From IMG/VR virus record IMGVR_UViG_2693429582_000029: a stretch of 13,218 nucleotides of DNA; one strand, given 5' to 3'. Under the pieces are notes generated by a model. That model saw only the letters and a program-made list of their open reading frames with translations. It did not search any database and had not been told where the DNA came from. Origin of the DNA: a virus. Taxonomy: Duplodnaviria; Heunggongvirae; Uroviricota; Caudoviricetes. Both the position numbers and the translations under genes were made by a program. Of this stretch, positions 1 through 259 are shown piece after piece (the first letter of the stretch is position 1; each line of letters begins with the position of its first letter).

Positions 1-72
1 GCCCTGACTTTCCAGAACCATACGAACTGCCCGTTGACGGACCTCGGGGGAAAAACGAGTATTTTTAGTCAT
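1..72 (-). CDS. IS3-family transposase OrfA, N-terminal 24 codons only (truncated by the window edge)
   Basis: Minus-strand ATG at 72..70 preceded by AGAGGTAAACAGG; translation MTKNTRFSPEVRQRAVRMVLESQG runs off the window. Confidence 0.6.
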   Translation of the reverse strand, partial: MTKNTRFSPEVRQRAVRMVLESQG

Positions 73-126
73 CCTGTTTACCTCTTTCTCAGGGAGTTTA
101 GTCTCCAGGATTTCCGGGGCGGTTCA
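1..126 (-). mobile_element. Partial IS3-family insertion sequence (IS629/IS1203-like); terminus at 126, element continues beyond the left window edge
   Basis: The reverse complement of 114-126 is TGAACCGCCCCGG, which I recall as the terminal inverted repeat of IS629. It is followed on the minus strand by an RBS and an ATG at 72 opening an ORF MTKNTRFSPEVRQRAVRMVLESQG, the typical IS3-family OrfA N-terminus. Recognised from memory, not searched. Confidence 0.6.
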
Positions 127-259
127 GAAACTTTCCTGGCTCCTTGGTTCTGGCATTTGCACCAGATGCTACTGCTGCGCGATGCAGATCGTTCAGGCTG
201 TAACGCCCATAAGCATCACGACGAACTTCAATACCATCAATGACCATCAGATTATTCAT
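127..259 (-). pseudogene. KilA-N-like phage gene, N-terminal 44 codons, interrupted by the IS insertion at 126/127
   Basis: Minus-strand ATG at 259..257 with a strong RBS (AGAGGAGA) 8 nt upstream; translation MNNLMVIDGIEVRRDAYGRYSLNDLHRAAVASGANARTKEPGKF then reads straight into the IS terminal repeat and stops at 100..98. The start of the peptide resembles KilA-N/antirepressor N-termini. Confidence 0.45.

Follow-up and report, generated by a model that had tools for sequence, protein, structure and literature searches.

The window, by which is meant the entire stretch of 13,218 nucleotides that was analysed, belongs to a ~54-kb stx-negative lambdoid prophage that carries NleG effectors and resides in the 5′ end of prfC in Escherichia coli O103 ML775 or a near-identical strain. 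As listed in Table 1, its left edge is occupied by the end of an IS3-family insertion sequence (IS), followed going rightward by the 5′ fragment of a KilA-N gene, rusA and a gene for a LexA-like protein. When positions 1-700 were compared by megablast with 5,426 complete E. coli genomes, the one full-length 100% match was ML775 (NZ_CP193495.1), and hundreds of other genomes gave a 100% match to positions 126-700 only. The whole window corresponds to ML775 4520102-4533319, with 13,217 of the 13,218 bases identical; the sole mismatch, at 8543 (A in the window, G in ML775), is synonymous and falls in Leu31 of a YfdS-family gene. The left flank of the IS was read from ML775, and the window and this record, being one base apart, may represent different isolates or assemblies. 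In what follows, L001 and L003 denote positions in ML775 and L005 those in strain 720632.

Table 1. Features of the window discussed in the text (positions are those of the window; strand as indicated)
Feature	Position	Strand	Remarks
IS629/IS1203-type IS3-family IS, left (orfA-proximal) end	1..126	-	126 of 1,310 bp inside the window, remainder to the left of it
IS629 orfA, first 24 codons (MTKNTRFSPEVRQRAVRMVLESQG...)	1..72	-	ATG at 72-70, preceded by an AAGAGG RBS; cut by the window edge
IRL TGAACCGCCCCGGAAATCCTGGAGAC	101..126	-	Starts at 126 on the minus strand
Target site duplication, right copy, GAA (+ strand)	127..129	.	Equals L001 20127-29; left copy at L001 18814-18816
KilA-N gene, 5′ fragment	127..259	-	44 codons + 1 nt; the mechanical ORF reads into the IS and ends at 98
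Shine-Dalgarno sequence AAGAGGAG	276-269	-	9 nt 5′ of the KilA-N ATG; direct sequence reading
rusA, 129 aa, intact	279-668	-	PF05866, E 6e-15; next upstream of KilA-N in the rightward early operon
LexA DNA-binding-domain-only protein, 108 aa	665-991	-	PF01726, E 3e-19; without S24 peptidase domain
C4 antisense RNA	3702-3789	-	RF01695, 82.8 bits
isrK Hfq-binding sRNA	3814-3890	-	RF01394, 63.7 bits
Excisionase, 64 aa	9433-9627	+	phrog_1553 end to end, E 9e-36; absent from the ML775 RefSeq annotation

The interrupted KilA-N gene

According to the ORF listing and to direct reading of the strand, the minus-strand ORF at the window edge runs from 259 to 98 and encodes 53 amino acids, with its ATG at 259-257. 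Codons 1-44 of the KilA-N gene correspond to 259..128, and codon 45 (127-125, CTG) spans the junction with the IS, the leucine being kept by chance; the translation is MNNLMVIDGIEVRRDAYGRYSLNDLHRAAVASGANARTKEPGKF-L-NRPGNPGD*, in which NRPGNPGD represents eight IS-encoded residues in front of the stop. The original prediction had placed the start of this ORF at 259 behind a strong ribosome-binding site, with 44 native codons, an IS junction at 126/127 and a start of orfA at 72, and all of these coordinates hold when the strand is read.

The same prediction had taken the gene downstream of rusA for a truncated KilA-N gene, which is borne out by its uninterrupted homologues and by the domain content of the restored protein. 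In the megablast comparison with E. coli genomes, uninterrupted homologues align to the window from 126 or 127 rightward only. Removal of the IS and one GAA in silico, by which the 5′ fragment is rejoined with L001 18137-18816, restores an ORF of 269 amino acids, the product of which matches PF04383 (KilA-N) over residues 7-109 (E 2.4e-22, 79.2 bits, cut-off 23.8). Because the break is located at residue 44/45, it lies inside the domain. The restored protein also aligns over its full length with PHROG 129, the label of which, "transcriptional regulator", is an annotation only. An intact form of the 269-aa gene is present in about 1,000 other genomes.

What remains of the KilA-N protein in the window is a 53-aa stump made up of residues 1-45, with 38 of the ~103 domain residues, and the eight residues encoded by the IS; this copy is a pseudogene fragment of a gene that has been destroyed by the IS. 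In RefSeq (ML775), the halves on either side of the IS are already listed as partial pseudogenes. The intact KilA-N protein WP_001061444.1 (PHROG 129), which is known from Stx1a and stx-negative lambdoid prophages of O103, O121 and O145 E. coli, has the same length as the restored product (269 aa), and its gene occupies the same place between rusA and the DUF968-Q genes, the uninterrupted KilA-N genes being 100% identical to the window over 126-700. The two differ in that the gene for WP_001061444.1 is unbroken, whereas the gene in the window is split by the IS, with residues 1-45 left alone on the promoter-proximal side.

The insertion sequence and its target site

The complete IS in ML775 comprises 1,310 bp (L001 18817-20126), and its right end corresponds to positions 1-126 of the window. 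Members of the IS3 family are recognized by a length of ~1.2-1.55 kb, imperfect terminal repeats with TG...CA ends, overlapping orfA and orfB, a -1 frameshift signal and a target duplication of 3-4 bp, and every one of these features that can be tested is found in the 1,310-bp element. The right terminal repeat (IRR, TGAACCGCCCCGGGTTTCCTGGAGAG) agrees with the left one at 22 of 26 positions, and the termini are 5′-TG...CA-3′. In Pfam, OrfA (108 aa) matches HTH_Tnp_1 (E 1.4e-12) and OrfB (296 aa) matches rve (E 1.6e-26), HTH_21 and rve_3; orfB lies in the -1 frame and overlaps the stop of orfA. An A6 run at nucleotides 373-378 of the IS, within the orfA/orfB overlap, and an ALIL pseudoknot (Rfam RF01497, 121.5 bits, gathering score 50) together form a predicted -1 frameshift signal.

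Copies with 100% identity to the element over all 1,310 bp occur in O157:H7 Sakai, EDL933 and numerous other EHEC genomes, and the identity to the IS annotated as IS629 in phage BP-4795 is 98.9%. In Sakai, the annotation of this copy is a 1,310-bp repeat_region, "IS1203 Family: IS3", that contains "IS629 transposase OrfB", and RefSeq (ML775) names the element "IS3 family transposase" with a programmed frameshift. The element is most probably IS629/IS1203, judging from the annotated copies of Sakai/EDL933 and BP-4795 on which the name rests, and the IS629-like identity that had been proposed for the window edge is thereby upheld, as it is by the length and by the 3-bp target duplication described below. 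Because the end of the element is 100% identical to the Sakai and EDL933 copies, the likeness of positions 1-126 to an IS terminus is not a chance resemblance.

IS629 produces target duplications of 3-4 bp, 62% of its copies in O157 are located in prophages, and IS1203 is one of its isoforms (Rump et al., PMC3271280). In comparison with IS629 (isoforms IS1203 and IS3411) of EHEC O157:H7 Sakai and EDL933, nothing is structurally different in the window-edge element, which shares with it the 1,310-bp length, the TG...CA ends, OrfA and OrfB, the frameshift region, the ALIL pseudoknot and the 3-bp target duplication; its location in a prophage likewise fits the preference of IS629 for prophage DNA (PMC3271280). 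The sole peculiarity is the site, codon 45 of the KilA-N gene of a prfC-integrated prophage, the junction (window 67-186) being found in one of the 5,426 complete genomes. Because of this rarity, the insertion looks recent and specific to the strain or lineage.

Extension of the sequence leftward, which had been suggested as a check on the insertion, reveals in ML775 the other end of the IS, a 3-bp GAA duplication and then the 3′ part of the KilA-N gene. With the junctions marked by a slash, the sequence of ML775 is ...GGCTGGAAAGAA/TGAACC... across the left end of the IS and ...GGTTCA/GAAACTTTCC... across its right end, and the empty site in O103 RM8385 reads ...GGCTGGAAAGAAACTTTCC..., with one GAA. 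Because GAA occurs on both sides of the IS and singly in RM8385, it represents a 3-bp target duplication. A natural "before" state is provided by the prophage of O121 RM8352, which occupies the same chromosomal site, covers 91% of the window at 99.8% identity and has an intact KilA-N gene (810 bp).

The junction could also be an artefact of assembly, in which a multi-copy IS was misplaced and a false KilA-N junction created. IS629 is indeed repeated, with ~10 places in ML775 matching its end, and in at least one place of the ML775 record a single base may be wrong (tail L, 698 versus 699 bp), which suggests long-read data. However, both junctions are exact, the 3-bp duplication is perfect and the reading frame is restored on removal of the IS, none of which would be given by a misassembly. 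Moreover, the window and the RefSeq record have the same junction yet differ by one base, which suggests that they are two independent sequences. There is consequently next to no likelihood of an artefact.

We are highly confident that an IS629 copy, complete and apparently able to function, was inserted into codon 45 of the KilA-N gene by simple transposition, in the orientation of the gene, in an apparently recent event that entailed loss of KilA-N and possibly polarity on the genes beyond. In the models provided by IS911 and IS3, OrfAB is produced by -1 frameshifting and transposition proceeds by copy-out-paste-in through a circular intermediate. By analogy, the OrfAB transposase would be made via -1 frameshifting at orfA/orfB, and an IS629 circle, excised as a copy from one of the resident IS629 copies, would then be pasted into the KilA-N gene; this probable route is drawn from the biology of the IS3 family, the intact structure of the element and the strain-specific site. 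Such an event would be recent, strain-specific and typical of IS629 activity in EHEC prophages. The case is an ordinary IS629 insertion in an EHEC-type prophage, which is already annotated and belongs to a known phenomenon.

Layout of the host prophage

The accessory block that leads from the replication genes to Q has the order dam, lexA-like, rusA, KilA-N, 171-aa ORF, DUF968 and Q. The RusA protein (WP_000767113.1) is identical in ML775, RM8385 and RM8352, and the 108-aa LexA-domain protein encoded between dam and rusA is conserved across the phage group. Beyond the IS, ML775 contains in order the 3′ part of the KilA-N gene, the 171-aa ORF, the gene for a DUF968/HNH protein and that for the Q antiterminator. 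After Q follow two opposite-strand ORFs, a DNA methyltransferase gene, tRNA-Ile, tRNA-Arg, TerB and DUF3927, and further on the DUF6645 gene (split by ISCro1), holin, lysozyme, Rz, terminase, capsid, portal and tail genes. The distal end is formed by sodC, lom, tail-fibre genes, three NleG/DUF1076 effector genes and attL at prfC. Both ends of the prophage, 54.45 kb apart, bear an attachment-site core of 14 bp, GGGTGAGAAATAAT, embedded in a 42-bp stretch that duplicates the 5′ end of prfC with 81% identity. By annotation and profile matches, the set of lambdoid modules is complete, comprising immunity, replication, Q, lysis, packaging, head, tail, int/xis and both att sites.

That the immunity, replication and integration modules are intact had been proposed from the window, and this view agrees with the finding that the window genes for the S24/HTH repressor, the Cro-like HTH protein, the CII-like YmfL protein and the replication initiator (PHROG 270) have unbroken reading frames of full length relative to their family profiles, and that the integrase has its arm-binding, central and catalytic domains. 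Q, which comprises 113 amino acids, spans positions 1-113 of the 118-position Pfam profile. A truncation of Q, suspected from its new accession and from the opposite-strand ORFs next to it, was dismissed on this coverage and on the same length and neighbours in 720632 and RM8352.

The original prediction went further in regarding everything distal to rusA as displaced or possibly deleted. In ML775, however, the distal genes are shifted by 1,313 bp only and none is missing; in this context, the distal prophage has lost nothing to the insertion. An IS-mediated deletion or rearrangement, by which Q and the lysis and late genes were lost or moved and a domesticated remnant was left, would be compatible with the window by itself, which ends inside the IS, and the multi-copy IS629 of ML775 (~10 end matches) could drive recombination of this kind. 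Nevertheless, the ML775 record, which differs from the window at a single base of 13,218, has the other end of the IS directly against the exact continuation of the KilA-N gene, and the 3-bp duplication is the signature of a simple insertion. The distal modules are in canonical order through attL in prfC and all of them are present, and a deletion, rejected on these grounds, is very improbable. A window edge that falls inside an IS mimics a truncation, and the full genome reveals a simple 1.3-kb insertion with all of the distal modules kept.

Lesions elsewhere in the prophage were also noted. ISCro1 (IS66 family, with tnpA, tnpB and transposase genes) lies at L001 7245-9860 in ML775, where it interrupts a DUF6645/SASA-esterase gene located after Q and before the lysis genes; this gene is unbroken in O121 RM8352. 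The tail L gene (L003 24777-25474) measures 698 bp in ML775 versus 699 bp in all of the closest relatives among the matches listed, which reflects either a genuine 1-bp deletion with frameshift or an error of assembly (at a homopolymer); in lambda, the tail L gene is essential. PGAP flags are attached to the tail-fibre N-terminal gene and gp10 in ML775. ISCro1, tail L and these flags are possible defects that are unrelated to the IS629 insertion. The portal "frameshift", by contrast, was rejected as strain-specific damage, its arrangement having the same length, 2,585 bp, in every near match listed and occurring in more than 1,200 genomes. Read from its genes alone, the ML775 prophage appears to have a complete layout, into which two ISs have been inserted and in which tail L is 1 bp short.

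Several further genes of the prophage merit mention. At 9735-11924 of the window (minus strand), between int/xis and the early-left genes, a 729-aa CHAT-domain protein is encoded, which is a full-length PADLOC match to BovA of the Borvo anti-phage defence (E 5e-241). The GC content of the BovA gene is 33.8%, against 46% for the window, and the gene therefore looks like prophage cargo; in near-identical O121 prophages it is divided between two ORFs, with an IS600 nearby in some of the strains. The C4 and isrK RNAs both lie inside a mechanical 382-aa Rha/Ash ORF (3102-4250), which suggests an antirepressor module controlled by small RNAs, like that of P1 or Gifsy, and a shorter ORF from the real coding start. 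Just downstream of Q and upstream of the tRNA genes, at L001 14774-16235 (plus strand), two overlapping ORFs of 308 and 182 aa have a GC content of 30.6%; the second is very hydrophobic, and the pair is conserved in O121 RM8352. Neither gave a match in Pfam or PADLOC, and they may be an uncharacterized moron or defence pair.

Consequences of the insertion

The insertion may have crippled the prophage, as was originally suggested, and the candidate mechanism is polarity on Q. The IS is placed between the replication genes and Q, along the transcription of the rightward early operon, and ~740 nt from the orfB stop to the start codon of the next gene are now without translation. Because of this untranslated stretch, Rho-dependent polarity on DUF968 and Q would be reasonable to expect, and polarity on Q is possible; late-gene activation would then be dampened, not abolished. 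A terminator within the IS was considered as support for polarity and discarded, since a consensus scan of a stretch that takes in the whole IS detected no terminator-like site on the transcribed (minus) strand, the overall counts being at the level of shuffled sequence. Re-expression of the 3′ part of the KilA-N gene was discarded as well: the scan gave no consensus match to an outward promoter at the right end of the IS, and the in-frame ORF starting with TTG (213 aa) is without an evident RBS. Elsewhere in the window, no gene is annotated in the ~700 bp (5842-6543) that separate the repressor gene from yfdP, and no N-like ORF was found there on the plus strand in the ORF listing or the annotation; the phage group appears to be without a recognizable lambda-type N antiterminator.

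In Stx phages, induction persists but its phenotype varies with where IS629 is located (Gong et al., 2023; PMC10810198), and an Sp5 derivative bearing an IS insertion can still move from O157 Sakai into K-12 (Asadulghani et al., 2009; PMC2669165). The ML775 prophage resembles phiPA2 and phiPA8 (PMC10810198) and Sp5 (PMC2669165) in that the same IS lies in or beside non-structural early genes of an EHEC lambdoid backbone that is otherwise kept. It differs from them in the site, which is a methyltransferase gene or an intergenic region of Stx prophages in those cases and the KilA-N gene of a prophage without stx here. In phiPA2 and phiPA8, where the phenotype was measured, the frequency of spontaneous induction varied with the position of the IS.

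A second insertion in the homologous KilA-N gene is found in strain 720632 (L005 2817-4126), where an independent IS629-type element lies at ~codon 125, with a GCC duplication and in the same orientation. This element has the same terminal repeats as IS629, with the IRL variant GGGAAT, its likeness being judged on the ends alone.

The insertion in ML775 might be functionally decisive, in that polarity on Q, or loss of KilA-N as a regulator or antirepressor on which lytic development depends, locks the prophage and allows the Borvo and NleG cargo to be kept without the risk of lysis. The position of the IS between pR and Q, the untranslated stretch described above, the second insertion in 720632 and the intact BovA gene are consistent with such an effect. 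On the other hand, only two of ~1,011 genomes with the rusA-KilA-N arrangement have an insertion of this kind, no terminator-like site was detected on the transcribed strand in the scanned stretch, which takes in the whole IS, IS629-bearing Stx prophages are still inducible or transferable (PMC2669165, PMC10810198), and any defect could be explained by the other lesions in the prophage. The site itself also argues against a decisive effect. In the nin region of lambda, the genes from replication to Q are dispensable. On balance, a decisive insertion is unlikely, and the ordinary insertion of IS629 described above, with its possible polarity, is preferred.

A stronger proposal is that insertions of IS629 in KilA-N genes are selected, not neutral, and represent an IS-driven domestication of prophages at a preferred switch point. 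This reading is founded on the two independent IS629-type insertions in the same orientation, at codon 45 in ML775 and ~codon 125 in 720632. If it were true, an inducible prophage would become a stable Borvo and NleG carrier once a KilA-N regulator or "kil" function was lost or Q came under polarity. The count of same-orientation insertions in KilA-N, two of the ~1,011 genomes with the rusA-KilA-N arrangement, was obtained from a megablast ranking in which a same-orientation IS629 end within 850 bp of rusA would outrank plain matches. Because these are two records only, the KilA-N gene was rejected as a hot spot of IS629, for which, as for selection, evidence is lacking, and the proposal is very doubtful.

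The value of the present finding lies mainly in correct annotation, as insertions of IS629 into EHEC prophages are a well-documented phenomenon that serves for strain typing, and the one in the KilA-N gene marks the O103 ML775 lineage in a strain-specific manner. If it is polar on Q, it would be one more instance of an IS that tunes the inducibility of a prophage, comparable to the difference between phiPA2 and phiPA8.
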